A stretch of 64,000 bases of DNA, taken from assembly GCA_019828565.1 (NCBI GenBank), contig JAHDYR010000006.1, positions 248,001-312,000 on the forward strand, given 5' to 3'. Below are positions 1 through 61,872 of this stretch, piece after piece. The translations under genes and the position numbers were made by a program. Within the stretch, counting starts at the first letter, position 1. Every line of letters begins with the position of its first letter. The notes below the pieces were generated by a model. It was not told where the DNA came from, did not search any database, and worked only from the letters and a program-made list of their open reading frames with translations. Origin of the DNA: Carpediemonas membranifera BICM (taxonomy: Eukaryota > Protista > Fornicata).

Positions 1-3000
1 GCCTTGCGGCGCTAAACCGTCCGTTAACGTCAGCGCCGAATTCAAGGAGTAGAAGAATGAGGTCGTCAAATCCATTAAAAGCAGCAGTTGTCAAGGGCGA
101 GCCATATTCGCAGTTGTAAGCTGTATACGCCCCTCCGTCGAGCAGCACACCGGCAGCGCTGAGGTTCCCCTGGATGCAGGTCATCATGAGGGCCGTGCGG
201 CAATCTTTGTCACGCAGGTCGAGGGTCGCCCCGGCATCGATGAGCAACTTGAGTATCTCGACGTGGTTATTGGTCGCAGCGGCAATGAGCGGGGTCCAGC
301 CATTGTTGTCTCGGTGGTCTGGATCAGCACGGTGCTCGAGGAGGAGGCTGACCATGTCAGCGTGGCCTCCGAAGGCGGCACGTAAGAGGGGGGACCAGCT
401 GTCGTTGTCGGCGATGTCAATCATAGACTTATTGGTGTCCAACAAAAGAGTTGCTATTTCGACAAACCCCTTCTCGGCTGCAATAAACAGTGCGCTGCTG
501 CCACTCGAGTGGACCTTGGTGCAGTCCGCCCCGGCAGCAAGCAGTGATCTGGTGCACTCGGCGTGACCCCGTAAACACGTCAGCATGAGAGCCGTGAATC
601 CTTCGTCGTTCTGCAGGTCGAGGGTCGCCCCGGCATCGATGAGCAACTTGAGTATCTCGACGTGGTTATTGGTCGCAGCGGCAATGAGCGGCGTCCGACC
701 ATTGTTGTTACGCTGGTCGAGGGTCGCCCCGCGCTCGATGAGGAGACGGACGACGTCGTCATGACCCTTGGCTGATGCGGCGAACAGAGGTGACGAGCCA
801 TCGTTATTGGCGACGTTGATCATGGACTGATTGGCGTCCAGCAGTAGCTTGACGATGCCAGCAAAGCCAAAGTATGCAGCGAGAAACAGAGCACTGGCGC
901 CCGTGGAAGAAACCTTGGTGCAGTCTGCGCCGGCACTTAGCAGAAAGCCAGCGCTGTCCGCGTGTCCGTTGACGCAGGCTACCATGAGCGCAGTCCTGCC
1001 ATCTTTCTCCTGCAGGTCGAGGGTCGCCCCGGCATCGATGAGCAACTTGAGTATCTCGACGTGGTTATTGGTCGCAGCGGCAATGAGCGGGGTCCAGCCA
1101 TTGTTGTCTCGGTGGTCTGGATCAGCACGGTGCTCGAGGAGGAGGCTGACCATGTCAGCGTGGCCTCCGAAGGCGGCACGTAAGAGGGGGGACCAGCTGT
1201 CGTTGTCGGCGATGTCAATCATAGACTTATTGGTGTCCAACAAAAGAGTTGCTATTTCGACAAACCCCTTCTCGGCTGCAATAAACAGTGCGCTGCTGCC
1301 ACTCGAGTGGACCTTGGTGCAGTCCGCCCCGGCAGCAAGCAGTGATCTGGTGCACTCGGCGTGACCCCGTAAACACGTCAGCATGAGAGCCGTGAATCCT
1401 TCGTCGTTCTGCAGGTCGAGGGTCGCCCCGGCATCGATGAGCAACTTGAGTATCTCGACGTGGTTATTGGTCGCAGCGGCAATGAGCGGCGTCCGACCAT
1501 TGTTGTTACGCTGGTCGAGGGTCGCCCCGCGCTCGATGAGGAGACGGACGACGTCGTCATGACCCTTGGCTGATGCGGCGAACAGAGGTGACGAGCCATC
1601 GTTATTGGCGACGTTGATCATGGACTGATTGGCGTCCAGCAGTAGCTTGACGATGCCAGCAAAGCCAAAGTATGCAGCGAGAAACAGAGCACTGGCGCCC
1701 GTGGAAGAAACCTTGGTGCAGTCTGCGCCGGCACTTAGCAGAAAGCCAGCGCTGTCCGCGTGTCCGTTGACGCAGGCTACCATGAGCGCAGTCCTGCCAT
1801 CTTTCTCCTGCAGGTCGAGGGTCGCCCCGGCATCGATGAGCAACTTGAGTATCTCGACGTGGTTATTGGTCGCAGCGGCAATGAGCGGGGTCCAGCCATT
1901 GTTGTCTCGGTGGTCTGGATCAGCACGGTGCTCGAGGAGGAGGCTGACCATGTCAGCGTGGCCTCCGAAGGCGGCACGTAAGAGGGGGGACCAGCTGTCG
2001 TTGTCGGCGATGTCAATCATAGACTTATTGGTGTCCAACAAAAGAGTTGCTATTTCGACAAACCCCTTCTCGGCTGCAATAAACAGTGCGCTGCTGCCAC
2101 TCGAGTGGACCTTGGTGCAGTCCGCCCCGGCAGCAAGCAGTGATCTGGTGCACTCGGCGTGACCCCGTAAACACGTCAGCATGAGAGCCGTGAATCCTTC
2201 GTCGTTCTGCAGGTCGAGGGTCGCCCCGGCATCGATGAGCAACTTGAGTATCTCGACGTGGTTATTGGTCGCAGCGGCAATGAGCGGCGTCCGACCATTG
2301 TTGTTACGCTGGTCGAGGGTCGCCCCGCGCTCGATGAGGAGACGGACGACGTCGTCATGACCCTTGGCTGATGCGGCGAACAGAGGTGACGAGCCATCGT
2401 TATTGGCGACGTTGATCATGGACTGATTGGCGTCCAGCAGTAGCTTGACGATGCCAGCAAAGCCAAAGTATGCAGCGAGAAACAGAGCACTGGCGCCCGT
2501 GGAAGAAAACCTTGGTGCAGTCTGCGCCGGCACTTAGCAGAAAGCCAGCGCTGTCCGCGTGTCCGTTGACGCAGGCTACCATGAGCGCAGTCCTGCCATC
2601 TTTCTCCTGCAGGTCGAGGGTCGCCCCGGCATCGATGAGCAACTTGAGTATCTCGACGTGGTTATTGGTCGCAGCGGCAATGAGCGGGGTCCAGCCATTG
2701 TTGTCTCGGTGGTCTGGATCAGCACGGTGCTCGAGGAGGAGGCTGACCATGTCAGCGTGGCCTCCGAAGGCGGCACGTAAGAGGGGGGACCAGCTGTCGT
2801 TGTCGGCGATGTCAATCATAGACTTATTGGTGTCCAACAAAAGAGTTGCTATTTCGACAAACCCCTTCTCGGCTGCAATAAACAGTGCGCTGCTGCCACT
2901 CGAGTGGACCTTGGTGCAGTCCGCCCCGGCAGCAAGCAGTGATCTGGTGCACTCGGCGTGACCCCGTAAACACGTCAGCATGAGAGCCGTGAATCCTTCG

Positions 3001-6000
3001 TCGTTCTGCAGGTCGAGGGTCGCCCCGGCATCGATGAGCAACTTGAGTATCTCGACGTGGTTATTGGTCGCAGCGGCAATGAGCGGCGTCCGACCATTGT
3101 TGTTACGCTGGTCGAGGGTCGCCCCGCGCTCGATGAGGAGACGGACGACGTCGTCATGACCCTTGGCTGATGCGGCGAACAGAGGTGACGAGCCATCGTT
3201 ATTGGCGACGTTGATCATGGACTGATTGGCGTCCAGCAGTAGCTTGACGATGCCAGCAAAGCCAAAGTATGCAGCGAGAAACAGAGCACTGGCGCCCGTG
3301 GAAGAAACCTTGGTGCAGTCTGCGCCGGCACTTAGCAGAAAGCCAGCGCTGTCCGCGTGTCCGTTGACGCAGGCTACCATGAGCGCAGTCCTGCCATCTT
3401 TCTCCTGCAGGTCGAGGGTCGCCCCGGCATCGATGAGCAACTTGAGTATCTCGACGTGGTTATTGGTCGCAGCGGCAATGAGCGGGGTCCAGCCATTGTT
3501 GTCTCGGTGGTCTGGATCAGCACGGTGCTCGAGGAGGAGGCTGACCATGTCAGCGTGGCCTCCGAAGGCGGCACGTAAGAGGGGGGACCAGCTGTCGTTG
3601 TCGGCGATGTCAATCATAGACTTATTGGTGTCCAACAAAAGAGTTGCTATTTCGACAAACCCCTTCTCGGCTGCAATAAACAGTGCGCTGCTGCCACTCG
3701 AGTGGACCTTGGTGCAGTCCGCCCCGGCAGCAAGCAGTGATCTGGTGCACTCGGCGTGACCCCGTAAACACGTCAGCATGAGAGCCGTGAATCCTTCGTC
3801 GTTCTGCAGGTCGAGGGTCGCCCCGGCATCGATGAGCAACTTGAGTATCTCGACGTGGTTATTGGTCGCAGCGGCAATGAGCGGCGTCCGACCATTGTTG
3901 TTACGCTGGTCGAGGGTCGCCCCGCGCTCGATGAGGAGACGGACGACGTCGTCATGACCCTTGGCTGATGCGGCGAACAGAGGTGACGAGCCATCGTTAT
4001 TGGCGACGTTGATCATGGACTGATTGGCGTCCAGCAGTAGCTTGACGATGCCAGCAAAGCCAAAGTATGCAGCGAGAAACAGAGCACTGGCGCCCGTGGA
4101 AGAAACCTTGGTGCAGTCTGCGCCGGCACTTAGCAGAAAGCCAGCGCTGTCCGCGTGTCCGTTGACGCAGGCTACCATGAGCGCAGTCCTGCCATCTTTC
4201 TCCTGCAGGTCGAGGGTCGCCCCGGCATCGATGAGCAACTTGAGTATCTCGACGTGGTTATTGGTCGCAGCGGCAATGAGCGGGGTCCAGCCATTGTTGT
4301 CTCGGTGGTCTGGATCAGCACGGTGCTCGAGGAGGAGGCTGACCATGTCAGCGTGGCCTCCGAAGGCGGCACGTAAGAGGGGGGACCAGCTGTCGTTGTC
4401 GGCGATGTCAATCATAGACTTATTGGTGTCCAACAAAAGAGTTGCTATTTCGACAAACCCCTTCACGGCTGCAATAAACAGTGCGCTGCTGCCACTCGAG
4501 TGGACCTTGGTGCAGTCCGCCCCGGCAGCAAGCAGTGATCTGGTGCACTCGGCGTGACCCCGTAAACACGTCAGCATGAGAGCCGTGAATCCTTCGTCGT
4601 TCTGCAGGTCGAGGGTCGCCCCGGCATCGATGAGCAACTTGAGTATCTCGACGTGGTTATTGGTCGCAGCGGCAATGAGCGGCGTCCGACCATTGTTGTT
4701 ACGCTGGTCGAGGGTCGCCCCGCGCTCGATGAGGAGACGGACGACGTCGTCATGACCCTTGGCTGATGCGGCGAACAGAGGTGACGAGCCATCGTTATTG
4801 GCGACGTTGATCATGGACTGATTGGCGTCCAGCAGTAGCTTGACGATGCCAGCAAAGCCAAAGTATGCAGCGAGAAACAGAGCACTGGCGCCCGTGGAAG
4901 AAACCTTGGTGCAGTCTGCGCCGGCACTTAGCAGAAAGCCAGCGCTGTCCGCGTGTCCGTTGACGCAGGCTACCATGAGCGCAGTCCTGCCATCTTTCTC
5001 CTGCAGGTCGAGGGTCGCCCCGGCATCGATGAGCAACTTGAGTATCTCGACGTGGTTATTGGTCGCAGCGGCAATGAGCGGGGTCCAGCCATTGTTGTCT
5101 CGGTGGTCTGGATCAGCACGGTGCTCGAGGAGGAGGCTGACCATGTCAGCGTGGCCTCCGAAGGCGGCACGTAAGAGGGGGGACCAGCTGTCGTTGTCGG
5201 CGATGTCAATCATAGACTTATTGGTGTCCAACAAAAGAGTTGCTATTTCGACAAACCCCTTCTCGGCTGCAATAAACAGTGCGCTGCTGCCACTCGAGTG
5301 GACCTTGGTGCAGTCCGCCCCGGCAGCAAGCAGTGATCTGGTGCACTCGGCGTGACCCCGTAAACACGTCAGCATGAGAGCCGTGAATCCTTCGTCGTTC
5401 TGCAGGTCGAGGGTCGCCCCGGCATCGATGAGCAACTTGAGTATCTCGACGTGGTTATTGGTCGCAGCGGCAATGAGCGGCGTCCGACCATTGTTGTTAC
5501 GCTGGTCGAGGGTCGCCCCGCGCTCGATGAGGAGACGGACGACGTCGTCATGACCCTTGGCTGATGCGGCGAACAGAGGTGACGAGCCATCGTTATTGGC
5601 GACGTTGATCATGGACTGATTGGCGTCCAGCAGTAGCTTGACGATGCCAGCAAAGCCAAAGTATGCAGCGAGAAACAGAGCACTGGCGCCCGTGGAAGAA
5701 ACCTTGGTGCAGTCTGCGCCGGCACTTAGCAGAAAGCCAGCGCTGTCCGCGTGTCCGTTGACGCAGGCTACCATGAGCGCAGTCCTGCCATCTTTCTCCT
5801 GCAGGTCGAGGGTCGCTCCGGCATCGATGAGCAACTTGAGTATCTCGACGTGGTTATTGGTCGCAGCGGCAATGAGCGGCGTCCGACCATTGTTGTTACG
5901 CTGGTCGAGGGTCGCCCCGCGCTCGATGAGGAGACGGACGACGTCGTCATGACCCTTGGCTGATGCGGCGAACAGAGGTGACGAGCCATCGTTATTGGCG

Positions 6001-9000
6001 ACGTTGATCATGGACTGATTGGCGTCCAGCAGTAGCTTGACGATGCCAGCAAAGCCAAAGTATGCAGCGAGAAACAGAGCACTGGCGCCCGTGGAAGAAA
6101 CCTTGGTGCAGTCTGCGCCGGCACTTAGCAGAAAGCCAGCGCTGTCCGCGTGTCCGTTGACGCAGGCTACCATGAGCGCAGTCCTGCCATCTTTCTCCTG
6201 CAGGTCGAGGGTCGCCCCGGCATCGATGAGCAACTTGAGTATCTCGACGTGGTTATTGGTCGCAGCGGCAATGAGCGGGGTCCAGCCATTGTTGTCTCGG
6301 TGGTCTGGATCAGCACGGTGCTCGAGGAGGAGACGGACGACGTCGTCATGACCCTTGGCTGATGCGGCGAACAGAGGTGACGAGCCATCGTTATTGGCGA
6401 CGTTGATCATGGACTGATTGGCGTCCAGCAGTAGCTTGACGATGCCAGCAAAGCCAAAGTATGCAGCGAGAAACAGAGCACTGGCGCCCGTGGAAGAAAC
6501 CTTGGTGCAGTCTGCGCCGGCACTTAGCAGAAAGCCAGCGCTGTCCGCGTGTCCGTTGACGCAGGCTACCATGAGCGCAGTCCTGCCATCTTTCTCCTGC
6601 AGGTCGAGGGTCGCCCCGGCATCGATGAGCAACTTGAGTATCTCGACGTGGTTATTGGTCGCAGCGGCAATGAGCGGGGTCCAGCCATTGTTGTCTCGGT
6701 GGTCTGGATCAGCACGGTGCTCGAGGAGGAGGCTGACCATGTCAGCGTGGCCTCCGAAGGCGGCACGTAAGAGGGGGGACCAGCTGTCGTTGTCGGCGAT
6801 GTCAATCATAGACTTATTGGTGTCCAACAAAAGAGTTGCTATTTCGACAAACCCCTTCTCGGCTGCAATAAACAGTGCGCTGCTGCCACTCGAGTGGACC
6901 TTGGTGCAGTCCGCCCCGGCAGCAAGCAGTGATCTGGTGCACTCGGCGTGACCCCGTAAACACGTCAGCATGAGAGCCGTGAATCCTTCGTCGTTCTGCA
7001 GGTCGAGGGTCGCCCCGGCATCGATGAGCAACTTGAGTATCTCGACGTGGTTATTGGTCGCAGCGGCAATGAGCGGCGTCCGACCATTGTTGTTACGCTG
7101 GTCGAGGGTCGCCCCGCGCTCGATGAGGAGACGGACGACGTCGTCATGACCCTTGGCTGATGCGGCGAACAGAGGTGACGAGCCATCGTTATTGGCGACG
7201 TTGATCATGGACTGATTGGCGTCCAGCAGTAGCTTGACGATGCCAGCAAAGCCAAAGTATGCAGCGAGAAACAGAGCACTGGCGCCCGTGGAAGAAACCT
7301 TGGTGCAGTCTGCGCCGGCACTTAGCAGAAAGCCAGCGCTGTCCGCGTGTCCGTTGACGCAGGCTACCATGAGCGCAGTCCTGCCATCTTTCTCCTGCAG
7401 GTCGAGGGTCGCCCCGGCATCGATGAGCAACTTGAGTATCTCGACGTGGTTATTGGTCGCAGCGGCAATGAGCGGGGTCCAGCCATTGTTGTCTCGGTGG
7501 TCTGGATCAGCACGGTGCTCGAGGAGGAGGCTGACCATGTCAGCGTGGCCTCCGAAGGCGGCACGTAAGAGGGGGGACCAGCTGTCGTTGTCGGCGATGT
7601 CAATCATAGACTTATTGGTGTCCAACAAAAGAGTTGCTATTTCGACAAACCCCTTCACGGCTGCAATAAACAGTGCGCTGCTGCCACTCGAGTGGACCTT
7701 GGTGCAGTCCGCCCCGGCAGCAAGCAGTGATCTGGTGCACTCGGCGTGACCCCGTAAACACGTCAGCATGAGAGCCGTGAATCCTTCGTCGTTCTGCAGG
7801 TCGAGGGTCGCCCCGGCATCGATGAGCAACTTGAGTATCTCGACGTGGTTATTGGTCGCAGCGGCAATGAGCGGGGTCCAGCCATTGTTGTCTCGGTGGT
7901 CTGGATCAGCACGGTGCTCGAGGAGGAGGCTGACCATGTCAGCGTGGCCTCCGAAGGCGGCACGTAAGAGGGGGGACCAGCTGTCGTTGTCGGCGATGTC
8001 AATCATAGACTTATTGGTGTCCAACAAAAGAGTTGCTATTTCGACAAACCCCTTCACGGCTGCAATAAACAGTGCGCTGCTGCCACTCGAGTGGACCTTG
8101 GTGCAGTCCGCCCCGGCAGCAAGCAGTGATCTGGTGCACTCGGCGTGACCCCGTAAACACGTCAGCATGAGAGCCGTGAATCCTTCGTCGTTCTGCAGGT
8201 CGAGGGTCACCCCGGCATCGATGAATAAGTCAATGATCTCGACATGACCCCAACATGCGGCGGCGATGAGCGGGTTATCATGCAGGTCTGAGGGATGATT
8301 GACGCCGGCGCCACGGTCGAGCAGGAGTCTGGCACAGCGAGCATGCCCACTGACAGAAGCTGCGAACAGGGGCGACTTGCCATCCTTATTGGTCACGTCA
8401 ACCATATCGGGTGCCGCATCCAGCAGCAGTTCGGCGATGTCTGTATCACTGAAGGCGGTGGCGATGTACAGGGCGGTGCGGCCGTTGGAGAACAAGGCCT
8501 TGGTGCAGTCGGCACCGGTGTCAAGAAGAGACCTGACAGCGTCCACGTGGCCATTCTCACACGCTGCAATGAGGGCGGTGTAGCCGTCCTCGTCCTGCAG
8601 GTCGACCCCAGCCCCGACATTGGTCAGCAGCTCGACAACATCCGTGTGTCCACCAGCAGCAGCAGCATTGAGGGCAGTTCGTCCGGCAGCACCGCGGAGG
8701 TCTGGGCCAGCCCCGGACTGCAGCGCCTCTCGCACCGTGACCAGTGAACCAGCGGCCGCGGCCTCGATTAGAAGCGTCCATTGGGAAGCACTTGACGCTA
8801 AGACTGTACCTTTGCTCTCCAAAGACGTTACTTCTCCGGCCTTGGCGCCTTCGGGGCCGACGGTCGGGGGCATGCTGGCTTGAGGCTGCGAGGCGACATC
8901 CGAAGGGACAAACGGCGAGATGTGGGCACAATAGTTGCAGTTTTCGTCTTGTGAGTATGTTGCAGGACTGTAGCTATGTGGGTTAGTGATGCTGATGCCT

Positions 9001-9221
9001 CTTGGCCTCGATTCGTCGGGTTCTGTCGATGGATGGACTGCTTGGGGTACATTAGTGCCTTCAACGGCAAAGTTGACACGAGTAGCGTTCATTGCAATGT
9101 CCGTATCTCGTTGCCACTCACCGACTGGGAATTGAGCCCACCCACTAATTGTGCCAATCCTGCTGGATGGAGACCATCCCTCACAGGCCTCACTGCGGTC
9201 GACCCCGACCATGCCATCCAC
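1..9221 (-). CDS. Giant ankyrin-repeat protein (>3000 aa, about 85 or more ANK repeats); one frameshift at ~2506-2509; runs off the window start
   Basis: The 2273-aa ORF 2400-9221 has TPLIAAA/TALM..C/SPL..AA ankyrin motifs. The same repeat continues to ~220 and is followed by unique ANK-like sequence. One B module reads GGAAGAAAAC where the others read GGAAGAAAC, which breaks the frame. Confidence 0.9.
221..8201. repeat. Coding tandem array of twenty 399-bp modules (types A and B, mostly as 798-bp AB higher-order units)
   Basis: Module starts recur every 399 bp (LDLQNDEG = A, LDLQEKDG = B). Order in protein sense: A A B A B' B B A B A B A B A B* A B A B A. Confidence 0.93.
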
Positions 9222-39788: not shown

Positions 39789-40301
39789 TGCTGACGTCCA
39801 CGAAGAAGACGCTTTTGTGGAAGCTCTGGAGAAGGCAATCCAACTCGCCCTCCACTCCGAGGGCTACTCAGGCTCCGACATCTCCATCGTGGTGCGGGAT
39901 GCCCTGTTCCAGCCCATCCGGCAGCTCCAGACAACAACGCACTTTAAGCCAACACAGACGGCGGAGGGCACCAAGTGGCTGGCCTGCGCGCCTTCAGACG
40001 AGGGTGCAGTGGAACGGGACATCATGTCGTTCGAGGGCTCTGAGGTGAACGTGCCGCCCGTGTCGGCGGAGAACTTCTTCCGGGCCCTGGATCGGGTCAA
40101 GCCGTCCGTGTCGAAGGAGGATGCCGAGGCACTCGCCAACTGGCAGTATGGTGACGGTGAATAGGGTTCTTTTTATTTTTTTAAACTGGCATGGCCCCCC
40201 GCTCTGCTTATGCTCTTTATTGTTGAGAAGACGATCTCCCTACTGACTTAAGACGTGAGTAGGAGGGAGACAGGGCAGTGTTGCGCAGTATAAACACATT
40301 G
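39789..40301. repeat. 513-bp direct duplicate of 52714-53226 (Vps4 fragment, hairpin and terminal repeat motif)
   Basis: Constant offset of 12925 bp; only two substitutions noticed, both in the subterminal hairpin. Confidence 0.95.
39859..40164 (+). pseudogene. VPS4: Vps4-type AAA ATPase C-terminal fragment (copy 1)
   Basis: EGYSGSDISIVVRDALFQPIRQLQTTTHFK...CAPSDEGA...KPSVS matches the Vps4 lid, beta domain and C-terminus. No Walker A/B or MIT domain lies upstream. Confidence 0.8.
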
Positions 40302-40309
40302 ATCGTCGA

Positions 40310-40352
40310 TGTGCTATTGAAGGGTCAAACAATGTGTTTATACTGCGCAACA
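40310..40352 (+). mobile_element. 43-bp solo end unit (mini-element) with a 5-bp GTCGA target-site duplication
   Basis: GTCGA[TGTGCTATTGAAGGGTCAAACAATGTGTTTATACTGCGCAACA]GTCGA; 42/43 identical to the reverse complement of 53204-53246. Confidence 0.85.
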
Positions 40353-40416
40353 GTCGACTTACTTTAAACTGCACCACAACACGTCGATTATTAACAGCAC
40401 TGTCAGTTCGTCAGCA

Positions 40417-50791: not shown

Positions 50792-50965
50792 GGTGTGAGT
50801 GGATCCACATTGTGTGCTCTCGCGTTGCACCTGTTTCAGCATACACCCCCGTGTCTCTTGGCACCCTCCACCCAGTCTCACCTATAAAGTTCATCCGCCA
50901 CCCTGGTAAAACTGGTGATGTCTCCAGTCTTCGTCCTCGGGTAACACCAGGCCCGCTTCGATTGT

Positions 50966-50995
50966 ACCTTACCTTACCTTACCTTACCTTACCTT
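50966..50995. repeat. (ACCTT)6 microsatellite, reading (TAAGG)n on the minus strand
   Basis: Six perfect pentamer copies. Confidence 0.95.
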
Positions 50996-51054
50996 CCGCT
51001 GGTGCGAGAACCAAGATCCCGCCCAGAACCGGCGCCCAGAACCCTCTTCTTCGA

Positions 51055-51134
51055 TGTTGCGCAGTATAAACACATTGTTCGAACCTCCCAGACAGGGCCT
51101 GAAAGGAACGATCAAAGTGCCAAACTGCACAACA
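51055..51134 (-). ncRNA. Candidate omegaRNA scaffold: 80-nt hairpin between the stop codon and the element end
   Basis: The arms are 38 and 39 nt. All six transition differences between them form G-U pairs on the minus (gene-sense) strand. The position matches TnpB/Fanzor guide scaffolds. Confidence 0.6.
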
Positions 51135-52556
51135 TCATCCGTCAGCAGACGAATGGTGGCGGTTAGCCAATTGATGATACTGGAATGATGTTGGAAGGCG
51201 CGGGATCGAGGTGCGACTGAATGGAGAGCCACTGAGCTCATCTTCCGTGGCAAGAGAACGCCACAGGATGTTCTCTGCAGCACTCTTGTCCCGATGATCA
51301 ACATTCAGAGCATCAGGAACTGTTGCGCGCCACTGAGCACCACGGCACTGTGGATTTTCGCAGAGCATCACACGATGTGGGTGAACGTGCTGGTCATCAC
51401 GCGGACGAACTCGCTTGTAGGGGGCGTGGCAGTGAGGGCAGACGACGGTGGTGCGGTCCTCGTTAACCATGTTAAGATCGACGACAATGTTATACCTCTT
51501 GAGAAGGGGTACTATCTCTCTCGCGAACTTTCGATATGGCGCGCAAGGAATGAACATACCAGCAGGCGTGGTGAATCCCGAGCTCCCGTAGAAGGCTTTC
51601 AGGCGAATGGGGGTGGGGATGGGATGGTGGCGACGCCAACCGAACTCCCGCAGACGGCCCATTGACCTGGGGTTGTCCCGGTAGCGTCTTTTCTGCTCTT
51701 CTGTCAACGGATTGGTGGCGTGTGGGAGTGCGTGATTAATTCCCACACGATGACAGAAATTATCATTCAGTAGGCCCATCGTGTCACCGTAGGCCATGAA
51801 GCCCGGTCGGACGGGGGCCATGGGCACGATCGGAACGAGGCGAGGCTGGCGGAGCGACATCGAGTACTCCCCGTTGAAGTGGCTGATGAGGCCACTCAAC
51901 GTCTCCACTCCGTCAGCAATTGCCCAGACGCAAGAGAGAATGCGTGGGGCAGCCTGGGAGACTGGGAGCCCGTCGTTCTCACCCATGTGAGTCGCCCAGA
52001 ACAGCGAGGGGAGACACGCAAGGATCTCAGGGTTGACCATGTTGAGGATGGCGTGAACGCCGGCCAACTCCTGCTCGAAGAAGGCCGGAGAGCCAACACC
52101 TGCGAGAGCTTCTTCGAGTCGGGCGAGGGTGCCCTGTAGCCTGTCACGGTACGTCGTCACCGTGCGGGCGAGCCACAGCTTCACAGAGTTGGCGTATCGG
52201 ATGAACCACTTCCGGAGACTGGGACTCACTCCAAGCAACGCCAAACGACCTTTGAGCTGCGCGACCAGATCCTGCGTGGTAGTCTCCCGCCACATCGGCA
52301 GAGTGTCGAGCGACTGCACGATGGCCGCGTAGGCCTGACCCGGCTGACCGCCGCGTACATGAGTGAGCAGTCCGTTGTGGAAGTCGGCGTCATGTAGGGG
52401 GAGTTGCCGGCGCTGCGCATAGCATTCAACCGCGAGCCGGGCCAGCAGGCATGAGTAGAGATATTTTGCTGCGGCGTAATCCCCCACTCTCCGTTCTTCG
52501 GTGTAGTTCTGTCTGAAAGCTTGCTTGATGGAGGCTTTGATCGTATATATCTCCAT
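51135..52556 (-). CDS. Fanzor/TnpB-like RNA-guided protein (473 aa from MEIYTIK; the ORF extends to 52604)
   Basis: Numbering follows the 489-aa ORF: FYGSSGF...PCAPYRKF, VNE382DRTTVVC389PHC392, C415ENPQC420, HRD439KSAAENI and terminal PFSR. The N-terminal TIKASIK and the VPIVP..P.RPGFM segment are Fanzor1-like. No clear RuvC-I D-P/L-G. Confidence 0.82.
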   Translation of the reverse strand: MEIYTIKASIKQAFRQNYTEERRVGDYAAAKYLYSCLLARLAVECYAQRRQLPLHDADFHNGLLTHVRGGQPGQAYAAIVQSLDTLPMWRETTTQDLVAQLKGRLALLGVSPSLRKWFIRYANSVKLWLARTVTTYRDRLQGTLARLEEALAGVGSPAFFEQELAGVHAILNMVNPEILACLPSLFWATHMGENDGLPVSQAAPRILSCVWAIADGVETLSGLISHFNGEYSMSLRQPRLVPIVPMAPVRPGFMAYGDTMGLLNDNFCHRVGINHALPHATNPLTEEQKRRYRDNPRSMGRLREFGWRRHHPIPTPIRLKAFYGSSGFTTPAGMFIPCAPYRKFAREIVPLLKRYNIVVDLNMVNEDRTTVVCPHCHAPYKRVRPRDDQHVHPHRVMLCENPQCRGAQWRATVPDALNVDHRDKSAAENILWRSLATEDELSGSPFSRTSIPRLPTSFQYHQLANRHHSSADG

Positions 52557-52783
52557 CTTGTTGCGCACTACAGGTGTGCAGCTGGTCATTGATGAAGATG
52601 TCATAAGAGCCGACGATGAACACCATTACCAGCATATACAAGTGTAGAAGTGAATTTAATGTGGAATAGAAGACAATGAGACGACGTGTGAGCGATTGTG
52701 ATGTTTGCAGCTGTGCTGACGTCCACGAAGAAGACGCTTTTGTGGAAGCTCTGGAGAAGGCAATCCAACTCGCCCTCCACTCC

Positions 52784-53089
52784 GAGGGCTACTCAGGCTC
52801 CGACATCTCCATCGTGGTGCGGGATGCCCTGTTCCAGCCCATCCGGCAGCTCCAGACAACAACGCACTTTAAGCCAACACAGACGGCGGAGGGCACCAAG
52901 TGGCTGGCCTGCGCGCCTTCAGACGAGGGTGCAGTGGAACGGGACATCATGTCGTTCGAGGGCTCTGAGGTGAACGTGCCGCCCGTGTCGGCGGAGAACT
53001 TCTTCCGGGCCCTGGATCGGGTCAAGCCGTCCGTGTCGAAGGAGGATGCCGAGGCACTCGCCAACTGGCAGTATGGTGACGGTGAATAG
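52784..53089 (+). pseudogene. VPS4: Vps4 C-terminal fragment (copy 2), cargo inside the element
   Basis: Identical translation to 39859-40164. Confidence 0.8.
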
Positions 53090-53284
53090 GGTTCTTTTTA
53101 TTTTTTTAAACTGGCATGGCCCCCCGCTCTGCTTATGCTCTTTATTGTTGAGAAGACGGTCTCCCTACCGACTTAAGACGTGAGTAGGAGGGAGACAGGG
53201 CAGTGTTGCGCAGTATAAACACATTGTTGGACCCTTCAATAGCACATTCGATAAAGCCTTATTCTGCGAAATAGCTCGACCTCA

Positions 53285-56200
53285 ATGTCTGCGCCTGGTA
53301 ACGACAATGATGCGTTACTGACGATCCAACGAATGTCTAGGGAGCTTCATAGCATTGAGCCACATAATAATCTGTCGGGAGCGCTTCAGAAGCGACATTT
53401 GGAGCTCAGGGATACGATACGGCGCGTAGGACGCATCTGCGCCGCCCCTGACGCAGTATGGCAGACGACAAAGACAGCTGTAGAGATATTTGCTAACCAT
53501 ATGGGCACACCGCACTCCACTCCGTTCTTTGACGCCGAGATCGCGCGACAGCTCGCGCTAATTGCAGCCACAGGGCCTGAAGAGACGTTTGCCTCGACCC
53601 TGCAGGTGATAACAACCGCGTACATGGAGGATCCGACCTCCCATCTCGCGGGCATCATCCCCGACGTCCTCATCGTACTCGCCACGTCAGTCTCGTCCAA
53701 CAGGGTATGGCAGGCGCTTGACGGCCTTCTCACACTGATGCTGAGTGCCGGGAAGAATATTCAGCGCTACGTTGGCCGGGAGAACGTCACTCTGGACTGG
53801 TTTGGCGGCCTGCTGCCCGCGCTCGCCACCATCCTCGCCAAGGCGGACGAGGTGTTCAACGGCCACCCAGACGCCGACGTCACCATCCCCGGTGAGATAC
53901 TGTCCCCGCCGGGCCCCAAGCCGCCTGGGACACTCGCACCCCGCCGACCGTGGGCCTGGGACTCGCACCCGGAGACTCACCGCATGCTCAGCGCCGTCTG
54001 GATGCTCGTTGTCATTCTGTCAGTCACGGAGACGCTCATGTGGGAGGCGCACCTCAAGACGATTGCCCGGTTCACACCGGTGTTGTTCACTCGGCACAGT
54101 CCTCTCGGGCTGGTCGACGGTGAGCTTGAGGTCACTGCACTGCTCAAGAACGGACTCGACGCCGGCACGGTCGCCTCTCTCAGGGCTCGACTCAGTTCCG
54201 AGTTCGAGGGCATTGCAAGGCAGGTGAAGCAGCTCTCCACCGCCCAGCTTGTCCTGCTGACGACGATATACGCCGTCGAGTGCCATAGGGTGTTCTCCGG
54301 CATCTTTGTCCCTGTGTACCACTATCTGATGATCGAGGAAAGCCTCAGAATGGCCCCGGCGTCGTCAATGACGGAGGAGCTGTCCAAGTCGAGGAGGGCG
54401 CCGATCTGGACCTTCTTGGAGGTCATAGTTGACAAGATATACTCAAAGTGGTCGAATCTTTTCATATCTTCAAGTGATACGTGTTCGAACCCAGCCAACC
54501 GCACAATTGTCATTGAGGCGGCGGTCGAGCTCCTCCGCTTCCACCAGGCGACCCTACCCGAGACTGCCCGCCGGGTCCGCACCCACCTCCTCCTGACACT
54601 CACAGGCCAGCCCGACACATGCGTCAACAGCGACGTCCTCGAGGCATCGCTCGCGGCATTCCCGCCCGACGGTCCTGGCAGCGAGGGGCTGCTCGAGACA
54701 ATATTCCAGACGGCACACCGGGCACACCCCGTGCGGCTGTGTGGCATGCTTGCCGTGCATCGAATCAGATCTCTCCGGCAGGGTCTGGCGCCTGTATCTT
54801 TGCACACCATATTTGGAGATATTCAACTCCGGTCGAGTCTTGATGTTGCGATAGACGCAGCTCTCGAGCTCGTCTCCACGGGCACGATGCCCCTCCCCCG
54901 CCGCGTGTCCAACCTCGCTCAGCTTTGGACCGGCCATCGCCACGAGTTGACCACACCTCATGTTACGGCCGAGCCCGTCGGTCTGGCCACAGGCGTGGCC
55001 GATAGCGTTATCCTGCACGCCCATGCACACGGGCCAGTCGCGGCGGTTTACGACGGCCTGCTGCACCTCGCGAGAGGGGTGGGCGAGATCCCTGGCGGGG
55101 CGCTTGATCAGCTGTTCAAGCGACGCGACGCCTCCGAACTCATCGGGCTGGAGGCGGCGGCTGCCGTCATCGACGCCGTCGCTGTCATCGGAAGCAGCCA
55201 GTGCGTCGCCTCGACCTCTCGCTGGATCATTTCCCTCCTCGAATTCCACGAGGAGGTCGGAATCGGCCTGTTTAGCGGCGAGGCAGACCCACACACTGAC
55301 ACCGAGATCCCGTATGACGAGCCCGCACACGCAGAGCCGGTCCAGGAACACCGCGTCGACTTCGCCCCGGCCACGCAGCGGCTGTGGCTCCAGGCACTGC
55401 ACGGACTGCTCCTCTCCGCCCCAGACGACGTCGGGGCCGAGCTGGTGGTCTTCGTCACGAGGGTCCTGGGCGGCGACGGGCTTGCCCTCAGTCGGGTGGT
55501 TTGGGGTCCCCTCATCCAGCTCATGCTCCTCGCCCTGGACCTCCTCGACGGCACCACGGACAGCCTCAAGGACCTCGTGGCGACCAGGATTCTTCAGAAC
55601 ACGGCCACACTCCTTGCTCTGGGCGATACTCCTCGGGGCTGGGACAACAGAGCCCACAGAGACGAGGCCGAGTCGTTGGTCACTCTTGCCGCCGCAATCA
55701 CAGCCCAGCTCGGGGCCACGGAGTCCAGCGTGCGGGCACTGGCCACCATTATCGCCATAGAGGCGGGGTCTACCCTTGCATGGACCGGTTTTGTCCCGAA
55801 TGTGACCCGCGTCCTCGGCGTCGAGATTCCCCAGACCATCCCATTCCGGCCCGGGACACGACAGCGGCAGATGACCACCGCAGGAGCGTTCATCCAGACC
55901 CTGAAGCGCGCCATCGACACGTTCGAGGGGCATGTTCTTCCCCCAGGATTCGGTGCCGACCTCATTGACCTCGCATCATTTGATTGCACCCTGCTCGTTG
56001 ACCTCTACCACCGCATCCGGCCCTCGCTCCGGCAAAACGGCAAGCTGGCCGGCGAGCTGGCTCAGTACATCTCTGACAACCTCATACGCTTCTGCCAGGT
56101 CAACCGCGCCTTCGACATTGTCATTGAAGCCCGCTGCCAGCCGCCCAGCTTCGCCTTCGACCTGTCCTCCATCCCCGATGACTACTACGACGCCCTTCCG

Positions 56201-57892
56201 CACTGCTCGCCCCTCCGCCCCCCGCTTGCCATCCTGCTGCTGTCCTCCGTCCCTGCTGGCGCCTCTCTGACTCAGAATCGACTCAGACAATATGCGGTCA
56301 GATCTCTGGCTGTCAGTTTCGGCATGGAGGTCTTCTTCCAGGACCAAGAGTTCAGGCCGTACCAGCATGATCCCAAGGCCCACCCCGCACTGGTTGCCAG
56401 AGGTGTGCCGGGTGCAGCAGACCGCCTTCGTCAGTCTGCAACGTTTATCCCGCAGCTTGTCCAGCTCGTGAACACTGATCTAGACGGCCTTGTGGCTGCT
56501 CTTCTCGTCTCCATCGGCAAGCTATCTCCGCTCATGGCATCTCTCCTCATATCAGCCATCAGAGCCGAAGTGTCGCCTGAACTTTTCAAGAGCGCCTTCG
56601 ATAGAAAGGGGGCCACAGCCAAACCAGCGACCAAGAGCAAGTCCCACAGTGTTTTCAACAGGAACCTGTGCCGCGTTGTTGCTGAGATACTCGCCTCAAT
56701 GACCGATGAGGACAGCACCGCGTTCAACACACAGTTCTCGTTCGTATCTCAGATTATGGGGATCTCTGACCGCTTGGTCAAGACACGAGACACGAAGAAA
56801 ATATCTTCTGATGATCCGGCGATCGGAATTGAGCTTGACCGTCTCTTGAAGCAGACGACCATCTCCGGCGTGGAGACGCTCCCCTTCGACACGGCCGCCA
56901 CTGTGGTCGGGATCCTCCCCAATAGATCCGTCCCCCTCAAGTCCCACTCGCGTGTGCCGCTACTGGTCACCTTCCTCGCGATCACCCACCGCAAGGAGGG
57001 TTCGCTGACATCGGCAGAGGCGCACACCCTCCGCGAAGACGTACACGGCAGCGAGACTGTGCTCAAAGAGGCATATGCGGGCATGGACGCTGGGTCCCAC
57101 TGGCTGAAGCTGACGACGTGTATATTCAAAACGGGCGATGACGTTCGCCAGGACCAGCTCGCCCTGCAGCTGATCGCCCAGTTCAAGGGGCAGCTCACGG
57201 CCGCGGGGCTCGGTTTCCTGTTCCTGTACCCCTACCGCGCAGTCCCCATCGAGGCTGATGTCGGGTTGGTCGAGTGTGTCAAGGACGCCTCATCTCGGGA
57301 TCAGATTGGGTCGATGTTGGACGGGTCGGTGTACCACTACTATTTACGTGAATTCGGGCCAGCCATAAGTCCTGAGTTCAAGTCCCGTCAGCAGCAGTAT
57401 TGTTACTCGCTCGCGGCATACAGCGTGGTGTCGTATCTGCTTCAGATTAAGGACAGACACAACGGGAACATCATGCTCGACCGCCAAGGCCGCATCATCC
57501 ATATCGACTTTGGATTCATATTTGATATCTCGCCCGGAGGAGATATTAGATTCGAAGCTGCTCCGTTCAAGCTTACACGCGAGATGATCGACATGCTTGA
57601 CGGTCCGGACTCGCCTCTATTTATGGAATTCATGGAGCTGTGCGTGCTTGCCTTCCTTGCCCTCCGGCGGAACTACCTCGACCTTGTGGGTCTCGTCCGC
57701 CCGATGCTGAAGTCGAGCCTGCCCTGCTTCAAGGTCGACTCAGTCCGTAACCTGCTCGACCGGCTGGCCCTTGGGGCGACTGACCTTGAGGCAACACGGT
57801 TCATGCGGGACCGCATCCGGGAGAGTTTCGATTGTCTCAGTACTAATGTGTACGATCGCTTCCAGGCGTGGCAGAACAACATTAACTGGTGA
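53285..57892 (+). CDS. Phosphatidylinositol 4-kinase, type III alpha/Stt4-like
   Basis: PLKSHSRVP, IFKTGDDVRQDQLALQ, LQIKDRHNGNI, HIDFGFIF.ISPGG and FE.APFKLT motifs. Confidence 0.93.
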   Translation: MSAPGNDNDALLTIQRMSRELHSIEPHNNLSGALQKRHLELRDTIRRVGRICAAPDAVWQTTKTAVEIFANHMGTPHSTPFFDAEIARQLALIAATGPEETFASTLQVITTAYMEDPTSHLAGIIPDVLIVLATSVSSNRVWQALDGLLTLMLSAGKNIQRYVGRENVTLDWFGGLLPALATILAKADEVFNGHPDADVTIPGEILSPPGPKPPGTLAPRRPWAWDSHPETHRMLSAVWMLVVILSVTETLMWEAHLKTIARFTPVLFTRHSPLGLVDGELEVTALLKNGLDAGTVASLRARLSSEFEGIARQVKQLSTAQLVLLTTIYAVECHRVFSGIFVPVYHYLMIEESLRMAPASSMTEELSKSRRAPIWTFLEVIVDKIYSKWSNLFISSSDTCSNPANRTIVIEAAVELLRFHQATLPETARRVRTHLLLTLTGQPDTCVNSDVLEASLAAFPPDGPGSEGLLETIFQTAHRAHPVRLCGMLAVHRIRSLRQGLAPVSLHTIFGDIQLRSSLDVAIDAALELVSTGTMPLPRRVSNLAQLWTGHRHELTTPHVTAEPVGLATGVADSVILHAHAHGPVAAVYDGLLHLARGVGEIPGGALDQLFKRRDASELIGLEAAAAVIDAVAVIGSSQCVASTSRWIISLLEFHEEVGIGLFSGEADPHTDTEIPYDEPAHAEPVQEHRVDFAPATQRLWLQALHGLLLSAPDDVGAELVVFVTRVLGGDGLALSRVVWGPLIQLMLLALDLLDGTTDSLKDLVATRILQNTATLLALGDTPRGWDNRAHRDEAESLVTLAAAITAQLGATESSVRALATIIAIEAGSTLAWTGFVPNVTRVLGVEIPQTIPFRPGTRQRQMTTAGAFIQTLKRAIDTFEGHVLPPGFGADLIDLASFDCTLLVDLYHRIRPSLRQNGKLAGELAQYISDNLIRFCQVNRAFDIVIEARCQPPSFAFDLSSIPDDYYDALPHCSPLRPPLAILLLSSVPAGASLTQNRLRQYAVRSLAVSFGMEVFFQDQEFRPYQHDPKAHPALVARGVPGAADRLRQSATFIPQLVQLVNTDLDGLVAALLVSIGKLSPLMASLLISAIRAEVSPELFKSAFDRKGATAKPATKSKSHSVFNRNLCRVVAEILASMTDEDSTAFNTQFSFVSQIMGISDRLVKTRDTKKISSDDPAIGIELDRLLKQTTISGVETLPFDTAATVVGILPNRSVPLKSHSRVPLLVTFLAITHRKEGSLTSAEAHTLREDVHGSETVLKEAYAGMDAGSHWLKLTTCIFKTGDDVRQDQLALQLIAQFKGQLTAAGLGFLFLYPYRAVPIEADVGLVECVKDASSRDQIGSMLDGSVYHYYLREFGPAISPEFKSRQQQYCYSLAAYSVVSYLLQIKDRHNGNIMLDRQGRIIHIDFGFIFDISPGGDIRFEAAPFKLTREMIDMLDGPDSPLFMEFMELCVLAFLALRRNYLDLVGLVRPMLKSSLPCFKVDSVRNLLDRLALGATDLEATRFMRDRIRESFDCLSTNVYDRFQAWQNNINW

Positions 57893-61020: not shown

Positions 61021-61872
61021 TGTAGCGGGGTATGAATAGTGGTAAAGCAGGTCATGTTTCTGTCTTTGTTGCCTGGTCTCCTGTCATGACTTGTGGCGTC
61101 CCTGCTTCTCTCCGCTGGGGCAGAGGCCAGTGGAAGGATTGCTGGGTCTCAAAGGGTCGGCCGATCATATACGGTTGACTTAGCGGTATTTGAACGGTTC
61201 AGAGCGCCAGGCAGACTCATTAATGACTGCCTCATGTAACATGTATTCTGCGACCCTCATCGGCATTGACGACGAGCGCCAGCGCTGCCGCGACAGCGCA
61301 GATAACTCATGATTATTTATATCCTGCGGGTAGCGTAATTATGGACCAACGTACGTAACTACACTGCGGTGAGGGTCTGGTTCGTAGCACAATTCATTTT
61401 GACAGTTCCATTTATGAGCCAACTCACGTAGCACATAATAAAAGGTCGAGGCCTACCTCTACGCGTCAGCAGCCAGATTTTACATCCCTGCCCGCAAGAT
61501 CGCCCTTACCATGGCTGATGCCCTCATGTCCGCTACCCTGTTGGTGTATGACAAGAGGTGCGCCAAGCTGGGACTGTTCAACCCGCTGGAGCTCCTTCCG
61601 GCAGGGCTGTCGGCATAAGCCAGCAATTTACGTGAGATAAATGGAAAATCACAGGAAATGACGCAGTCAAATCGGATGATTGAGTCAGGATCGACTCAGC
61701 GGCGCTACACAAGCTCGCTCCGTTTCCCTTGTCTTTATTGGGAGGGCGTCCACGCCCCAACCGAGCCGGCGGGCGGCGGACGCAGTCCCGATGAGATCCT
61801 CTCCCTAAGACAGTAAAAGGCGCGAGTCATCCGAGTCAATCATAATCTGCACCACAAGAAACCACGAACTCA

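Follow-up and report, generated by a model that had tools for sequence, protein, structure and literature searches.

The stretch analysed here, referred to as the window, comprises 64,000 nucleotides of the Carpediemonas membranifera BICM assembly (GenBank GCA_019828565.1, contig JAHDYR010000006.1, forward-strand positions 248,001 to 312,000), and all coordinates are those of the window. At 51055-53246 it holds a 2.2-kb element carrying a gene that resembles those of Fanzors, the RNA-guided nucleases of eukaryotes related to TnpB. The original prediction, made from the sequence alone, had proposed a compact Fanzor-bearing family with direct repeats at its ends, a piece of a host gene as cargo and a 5-bp target-site duplication (TSD) containing TCGA. 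What emerged is a multicopy element that lacks a transposase, has shared boundaries and carries a Fanzor-type gene, as had been claimed, in a copy that has lost part of this gene by internal deletion. The features of the element and of related sequences are collected in Table 1.

Table 1. Features of the element at 51055-53246 and of related sequences in the window
Feature	Position	Strand	Evidence
Truncated family member lacking the Fanzor gene: Vps4 fragment, hairpin, 23-bp end arm	39789..40301	+	511/513 identical to 52714-53226
74-bp palindrome with perfect 23-bp arms, which the solo unit and the arm make up together; homologue of the 80-nt hairpin	40279..40352	.	
Solo 43-bp unit, opposite orientation, 42/43 identical to 53204-53246	40310..40352	+	Own TSD GTCGA at 40305-40309 and 40353-40357
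Predicted guide, ~15 nt of flank past the TSD, would match the empty site	51035..51049	-	Analogy with Fanzor1 RNAs; single occurrence in window
Left TSD copy, TTCGA	51050..51054	+	Sequence
40-bp terminal unit on the gene's 3′ side, reading TGT...ACA on +; a copy of the 43-bp unit that has diverged, and the right hairpin arm	51055..51094	-	36/43 columns vs 53204-53246; five read-through paralogues
80-nt hairpin spanning the interval between stop codon and element end, predicted to form the core of the guide-RNA scaffold	51055..51134	-	z = -8.4
Fanzor1-like gene, 489 aa, in-frame deletion of 163 residues at ~51650	51135..52604	-	Paralogue alignment, contig loose ends, motifs
5′ leader of the Fanzor gene, common to other copies	52605..52713	-	Read-through in P0008 and P0017; contig joint 51618 to 52676
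Cargo: Vps4 3′ fragment (AAA lid, Vps4_C) and T-rich stretch, antisense to the Fanzor gene	52714..53149	+	Pfam E 7e-14, 3e-8
Subterminal hairpin beside the end unit, purine-rich on +, part of the family's 5′ end	53150..53203	.	z ~ -2.8 on either strand for 53140-53203; read-through in P0008 and P0045
43-bp terminal unit, gene's 5′ side, TGT...ACA	53204..53246	-	Sharp shared boundary at 53246, differing flanks
Right TSD copy, TTCGA, 33 bp ahead of the PI4-kinase ORF start	53247..53251	+	Sequence

Element boundaries and end units

The element begins with TGT and ends with ACA, and TTCGA stands directly outside both termini, as originally claimed. TTCGA is the sole exact end duplication in the 2-15 bp range. 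Two random 5-mers of the window match with P=0.0013, a value that applies to TTCGA and equally to the GTCGA that flanks a second locus in the window. The 25-bp direct repeats reported at the ends consist of 25 identical bases, and they lie within homology along the full length of a larger unit. The units at 51055-51094 and 53204-53246 agree at 36/43 columns, and each is itself TGT...ACA; the termini that they provide read TGTTG at one end and TGTGC at the other. The repeat is better described as belonging to a unit of 40-43 bp, of which solo copies exist as well. One sequencing contig carries a variant intermediate between the two end units.

A 23-bp core of the end unit occurs four times in the window and not once in 100 shuffles. 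The two sites outside the element, at 40279-40301(+) and 40330-40352(-), are absent from the original prediction. They belong to a cluster that combines a truncated family member, a solo unit with its own 5-bp duplication and a palindrome assembled from parts of both (Table 1). The cluster (39789-40357) has a ribosomal L7Ae gene on one side and an NF-Y/histone-fold gene on the other.

Other copies of the element were studied indirectly, through paralogous proteins that read through its ends and through the loose ends of sequencing contigs. Subfamily and copy counts refer to records rather than loci and are lower bounds, and the reading of flanks from proteins presumes that no intron or indel lies at the element end. 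The sequencing runs may be the source of the assembly, and their contigs are guessed to be RNA, so that depth was set aside; X1 and X2 seem to be one data set, and the four runs that bear on the 53246 boundary represent one sample.

Five of 110 fetched proteins (P0012, P0017, P0054, P0061 and P0062) read through the 3′ end of the gene. All five diverge from the window directly after the terminal ACA, into five different implied flanks. At the other end, contigs from all four runs lose their match at 53246 and continue into other sequence, and two contigs (1084 and 2644 nt) contain exactly 53204-53246 internally, with 1 and 6 differences, and so add two solo units. Since copies elsewhere stop at identical bases and then enter flanks of their own, the boundaries are real, and TCGA is no requirement. 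Copies with the same boundaries had been predicted. The TCGA motif, present in both duplications of the window, does not hold up as a target rule, since it is missing from the first five flank bases of all five read-through proteins and from all three flanks read from single contigs. A partial preference for TCGA-like target sites may exist: six of the 16 loose-end rows at 53246 merge 2-4 contigs and are undecodable, and one of these six ends in CGAA.

The arrangement of the ends is likewise shared. The reading frames of P0008 and P0045 start in the 5′ arm and hairpin and pass from there to Fanzor sequence, so that the direct-repeat layout is a family trait, and the hairpin at 53150-53203 is found joined to the end unit in contigs having other flanks. 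When metagenome and viral contigs were scanned for the pattern of the end unit, 0 stretches matched, and scans for related loci confirmed 0/50 and 0/59 candidates. Over 51090-52705, runs X4 and X7 (from a second organism and a microbial-mat metagenome) yield contigs 95-99% like the element, and one microbial-mat contig has the same internal deletion as P0003.

The Fanzor-type gene and its relatives

The open reading frame (ORF) at 51135-52604 is short because 163 residues have been deleted from it, and the 'compact' Fanzor of the original prediction is thus a product of deletion. The gap, seen relative to P0011, takes out RuvC-I including its GFDPG motif. The missing piece is visible in contig loose ends on both sides of 51650, and no contig among those listed spans the junction in the form of this copy. 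What remains is the TnpB/Fanzor C-terminus that had been recognised at the outset, with a shifted glutamate (E-x6-CxxC), a C4 zinc finger and an RD motif, and no DPG. Since the first catalytic Asp went with RuvC-I, the protein of this copy is predicted to be nuclease-dead. Internal deletions are frequent in the family: contig joints at 51554-52173, 51757-52095 and 52740-53150 equal the deletions of P0003, P0026 and P0008.

All 12 other matches of the element ORF are C. membranifera records, 11 of them at 74-98% identity. The 110 fetched proteins fall into this subfamily (53) and two others (32 and 21) that are ~41-44% identical to it, with 4 unassigned. P0098 (646 aa, a metagenome protein) is an intact relative, and P0090 (612 aa) is also an intact natural member. 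P0072, a 140-aa piece 95% identical to the subfamily, is filed under a Copromyxa protea transcriptome and is likely cross-contamination. The source labels of family members include 'Transposase', 'cytosine deaminase' and 'Smc'; in alignments these are Fanzor-like fragments.

The Fanzor fingerprint combines DPG at RuvC-I with a glutamate six residues ahead of the zinc finger (PMC10711439). Among 111 sequences (the fetched proteins plus the window ORF), FDPG is present in 73, E-x6-CxxC in 53, the RD motif [HR]RDK in 48 and all three in order in 28. DPG is absent from this copy and present in its gene family. The loose Bao-Jurka motif matches 35/111, including the window ORF by way of a different Asp. 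The protein family is on record: one member of this subfamily, KAG9392881.1 (P0043), is already a Fanzor hidden Markov model (HMM) hit in Table S2 of PMC10711439.

Sequence comparisons point to Cas12f proteins, at low significance. Against PDB sequences at E up to 10, P0098 matches two Cas12f chains and nothing else (E 0.042); with the A4 profile the same two chains lead 16 PDB matches (E 0.014), and the A2 profile matched no PDB sequence. In the ESM Atlas, residues 260-630 score 0.97 against clusters, mostly of giant-virus or green-algal origin, in which 16-62% of members have TNB or in which DUF8286 occurs. The top ten of a fold search in a viral library are proteins of 575-777 aa, eight from large DNA viruses and two unnamed. 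Of the 50 rows that VIA listed, GtFz alone matches over the full length (Z 10.8, root-mean-square deviation 15.0, 341 aligned), for a model that is poor; the other 49 rows, helical-bundle matches to about residues 148-270, were set aside. HMM searches with the family reached only Carpediemonas, one transcriptome record and one record that clusters with P0098, and no described Fanzor. NCBIfam and PHROGs searches of the family gave nothing informative, and tblastn of P0098 against phages gave no match. Every test of remote homology to Fanzor is weak, and all are consistent. The more specific label Fanzor1 should be taken as provisional, as it draws on protein length, fold matches and Atlas clusters rather than on a tree.

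The hairpin and a predicted guide RNA

A hairpin fills the 80 nt from the stop codon to the element end, as had been proposed. It is a single fold of 32 pairs, six of them G-U, on the gene strand, with an energy of -42.2 kcal/mol against -25.6 on the opposite strand; with DNA parameters the values are -18.1 and -14.4. An Rfam search of the hairpin found no family and one sub-threshold chance hit. Over its entire length the hairpin can be aligned with the 74-bp palindrome at 40279-40352, and the alignment takes in the ATCGT directly inward of the left arm. The scaffold is therefore likely to have arisen when the end of the element itself formed a palindromic doublet. The palindrome could itself serve as a guide locus lacking a Fanzor gene.

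In Fanzor1 systems the terminal inverted repeat (TIR) and TSD form part of the scaffold, and the RNA extends ~15 nt past the TSD (PMC10711439); the guide RNA of SpuFz1 comes from an 80-nt region in the equivalent position. By analogy, the guide RNA of this family would consist of the 80-nt hairpin, the duplication and ~15 nt of flank.

Proposed mechanism and alternatives

We read the locus as a deleted copy of a multicopy, transposase-less element, a composite-like DNA transposon moved in trans by an integrase-type DDE enzyme, and give this reading a probability of about 0.62. The type of enzyme is suggested by the TGT...ACA ends together with the 5-bp stagger, and action in trans by the lack of a transposase in the element and in the 30 window ORFs scanned. 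Such an enzyme would bring together outer TGT/ACA ends, those of a single unit or those of the complete element, and cut with a 5-bp stagger; the two direct units would supply one left and one right outer end, the same as a solo unit does. Solo units could come from transposition of their own or from deletion between the 25-bp identical repeats, and either route would leave the same sequence. An intact paralogous Fanzor would then use the guide to cut the emptied site, and repair from a sister copy would restore the element, with this locus acting solely as a guide donor. Restoration by cut and repair at emptied sites has been described for OMEGA nucleases in a review. The order unit, hairpin, Fanzor on the 5′ side recurs in P0008 and P0045.

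Several observations weigh against parts of this reading. Both readable duplications sit in one window and both hold TCGA; the right one is similar to the bases that follow the unit within the 74-bp palindrome, so the two are perhaps not independent. As inverted repeats, the outer ends match at 9/30 terminal bases. A Pfam scan of the 30 window ORFs, the element itself and searches elsewhere, in material that did not include a whole genome, revealed no transposase. No empty allele was seen; the coverage of runs X4 and X7 does not extend to the flanks. A common variant at 51128 disrupts one pair of the hairpin. The longest fetched protein of the subfamily has 539 aa where ~650 are expected, and no full-length ORF is among those fetched. 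As for the Fanzor assignment, the strict published regular expression matches 0/111 sequences, because the second Cys pair (C-x4-C) and the last Asp are spaced differently. Pfam Cas12f1-like_TNB matches 14/17 aligned members below the cut-off, with a best E of 0.016. The fold models are poor (pLDDT 40 for P0058 and 49 for P0098). Of these two, the P0098 model was searched with Foldseek against 350,542 PDB chains; its top five rows are SpuFz/GtFz Fanzor1 structures at E 0.018-0.083 and TM ~0.25, which speaks for the assignment but is weak taken alone.

The palindrome invites another account, in which the mobile unit is a 74-80-bp palindromic MITE (miniature inverted-repeat transposable element) with 23-bp inverted repeats. 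The hairpin would be one copy, a copy clipped at a cryptic internal ACA would form the 5′ end, the direct repeats would be a by-product, and the 43-bp units would be clipped MITEs. The sequence at 40279-40352 fits this account, as its 23-bp arms are perfect, it aligns fully with the 80-nt hairpin including ATCGT, and TCGA comes after the 43-bp unit inside the palindrome. However, the 74-mer ends without a duplication where the 43-bp unit has one, two contigs contain exactly the 43-bp unit, and none of the 16 loose-end rows continues as palindrome past the 23-bp arm. We regard a palindromic MITE as unlikely.

A second possibility is that an HUH enzyme, Helitron2- or Replitron-like, moves the element by way of its terminal hairpins and direct repeats and captures pieces of neighbouring genes. 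Replitrons do carry short direct terminal repeats, Helitron2 elements of Chlamydomonas bear Fanzors and produce duplications, and Rep-like and helitron-like genes exist in the host (PMC8516963). The mosaic nature of the copies, with their gene fragments and numerous internal deletions, would also be expected. Against this, both ends are sharp and are TGT/ACA, in contrast to the fuzzy right end known from Chlamydomonas. Each of the two readable loci has a duplication of exactly 5 bp, and the variable lengths known from Chlamydomonas were not encountered, although few loci could be read. The hairpin is far more stable as gene-strand RNA than as DNA, and the Rep and helitron genes of the host are reportedly not expressed (PMC8516963). 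An HUH mechanism therefore seems quite improbable.

Direct TG...CA repeats, a 5-bp duplication and solo units also recall retroelements with long terminal repeats (LTRs). The element would then be a non-autonomous one with very short LTRs, akin to a terminal-repeat retrotransposon in miniature (TRIM), and its solo units would be solo LTRs; a purine-rich tract (17/20) just ahead of the right unit on the + strand might even be its polypurine tract. Reverse transcription yields LTRs that are identical at insertion, and LTR elements and TRIMs have a primer-binding site and a polypurine tract. Here, 7/43 columns distinguish the two units, and P0012, P0017, P0061 and P0062 share the 3′ variant; that several copies show differences between their units at identical positions argues against the LTR route. 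In a check for TGG, no primer site was found after the first unit, whichever way the element is read, and the end repeats are much shorter than known TRIM repeats. There is little chance that the element is a retroelement. It is just as hard to believe that the 2.2-kb span was never mobile as one piece, a solo unit having landed near a Fanzor element with 5-mers matching by chance: only one full element has been read with both flanks and the site is repeat-rich and adjoins a piece of another repeat, but a 5-mer match has P=0.0013, the unit-hairpin-Fanzor order appears again in P0008 and P0045, and unit and hairpin appear together again in contigs with other flanks.

The family may also be considered in light of its host, a free-living metamonad that has no ORC, Cdc6 or non-homologous end joining (NHEJ) and for which replication from breaks at RNA:DNA hybrids has been proposed (PMC8516963). 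One could conjecture that a mobile 43-bp micro-element built both the ends and, as a palindromic doublet, the guide scaffold, and that the resulting family, with over 100 gene records divided among three subfamilies, provides programmed R-loops and breaks throughout the genome with which the host starts recombination-dependent replication. We consider this a very long shot. Most fetched copies are broken, and the missing NHEJ could equally just favour selfish homing. The main text of PMC8516963 and its ten readable supplements mention no transposons, and the supplements no Fanzor. An expanded family of RNA-guided nucleases is nonetheless worth noting in a host of this kind.

Host-gene cargo and surrounding sequence

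The host-gene cargo noted in the original prediction is the 3′ fragment of a Vps4 gene. It spans 52714-53089, with a stop at 53089, and matches Pfam Vps4_C at E 7e-14. Its start (52714-52760, ALEKAIQLA) lacks a Pfam hit and recalls what we take to be the N-terminal helix of Vps4; if that is correct, the cargo is an internally deleted gene. The block 52714-53226 is repeated at 39789-40301, where all but 2 of 513 bases are the same. P0008 and P0045 agree with the 53-kb copy at one of these 2 sites, and the base of the 39.8-kb copy there is derived. We considered the 39.8-kb piece as the donor gene and rejected it, as it is a fragment, lies ~240 bp from the upstream gene and has the derived base. 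The best interpretation of it is a truncated member of the family. The shortened Vps4 form of P0008 equals the contig joint 52740 to 53150, and other copies likewise retain shortened forms.

Beyond the right duplication, the ORF at 53285-57892 encodes a PI4-kinase (Pfam PI3_PI4_kinase, E 5e-38); genes of the window include MCM, PI4-kinase, Vps4 and ribosomal L7Ae. On the left, a (TACCT)n run (50965-50994) lies ~60 bp from the element, and the flank at 50990-51035 holds a piece of another repeat that is also found 5′ of the subfamily-2 Fanzor genes P0029 and P0109. There it joins sequence ~60% like window 61470-61615, and P0029 additionally has the inner stem of the element's hairpin. Near the start of the window (~80-9212) lies an ankyrin-repeat ORF of 21 tandem 399-bp units in two alternating types, where a single spacing of 400 hints at a frameshift around 2400.

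Comparison with known systems

The element appears to work like a Fanzor1 element such as Spu-1, with the fingerprint present in the family and lacking in this copy. As in Spu-1/SpuFz1, GtFz1 and the SfAV Fanzor, paralogues combine DPG and RD with a glutamate placed six residues ahead of the zinc finger, their full length is ~610-650 aa, the stop-to-end region measures 80 nt, and the element is transposase-less with many deleted copies. In contrast to the 30-nt inverted repeats of Spu-1, the ends are direct 43-bp units with almost no inverted repeat. There is also no evident fixed target, the second Cys pair is C-x4-C, and RuvC-I is gone in this copy. HMM searches from this family reach none of the described Fanzors; the lineage is too diverged for an HMM link to characterised members, and intact natural members such as P0098 and P0090 exist. 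The lack of a fixed target in the flanks raises the question of which target-adjacent motif such a Fanzor uses.

Fanzor hosts in the accessible accounts are described as TIR transposons, Helitrons, Cryptons and IS607-like elements. Those listed by name are Mariner, Sola2, MuDR, Harbinger, Helitron, Crypton, hAT, EnSpm/CMC, piggyBac, LINE and IS607; Ginger2/TDD and IS481EU are not listed among them. These last two share features with our element. Ginger2/TDD elements have TGT termini and TSDs of 4-5 bp, and the 5-bp TSD of TDD-4/5 fits; of their TGTNR termini, the TGTTG end fits and the TGTGC end does not, and their TIRs of ~50-180 bp have no counterpart in ends that match at 9/30 bases when inverted. 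IS481EU elements of parabasalids have TGT...ACA ends, but they possess TIRs and TSDs of ~4, 15 or 25 bp, where 5 bp is found at both readable loci here. MCi-2 and MCi-5 of Mucor circinelloides (PMC3627910) are also similar in build: they are Fanzor1 elements flanked by duplications, their 5′ parts vary, and TIRs cannot be recognised in them. They differ in having duplications of 11-12 or 6 bp with a fixed pattern, and the accessible text describes no direct terminal or solo units for them. Further literature for comparison includes PMC10045372, PMC13565253, PMC10288648, PMC2836005 and 10.64898/2026.05.21.726589.

Searches of the literature support the statement in the original prediction that the end architecture is unrecognised among Fanzor hosts, as no description was found in what was searched. 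No Fanzor host with direct-repeat, solo or composite ends was found among the matches listed; Repbase, subscription journals and bioRxiv supplements were outside the search and may hold the family. No main text found in the literature searched treats Fanzor and Carpediemonas together, no Fanzor in the metamonad literature is among the matches listed, and the readable supplementary files of PMC10530073 and PMC10432273 do not name the organism. What was already known is the protein family, through one supplementary table, and the copy at hand is broken.

The closest parallel in architecture is KolobokP (PMC9587614), in which an internal region lies between direct terminal repeats, each with ends of its own, solo repeats occur and a nuclease is carried as cargo. 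Solo direct terminal repeats are common to both; size, ends and genes are not. The repeats of KolobokP are ~450 or 660 bp long, with 11-18-bp TIRs and RR...YY ends, as opposed to 43 bp and TGT...ACA, and it encodes a Kolobok transposase and a His-Me nuclease where this element has just the Fanzor ORF and the Vps4 piece. No multimers were seen in this family. If our reading is right, the 43-bp direct units that also occur solo would add a composite-like class of Fanzor host, parallel to KolobokP and equipped with an RNA-guided nuclease, and the likeness of hairpin and palindrome suggests a route by which a guide scaffold can be built from transposon termini.

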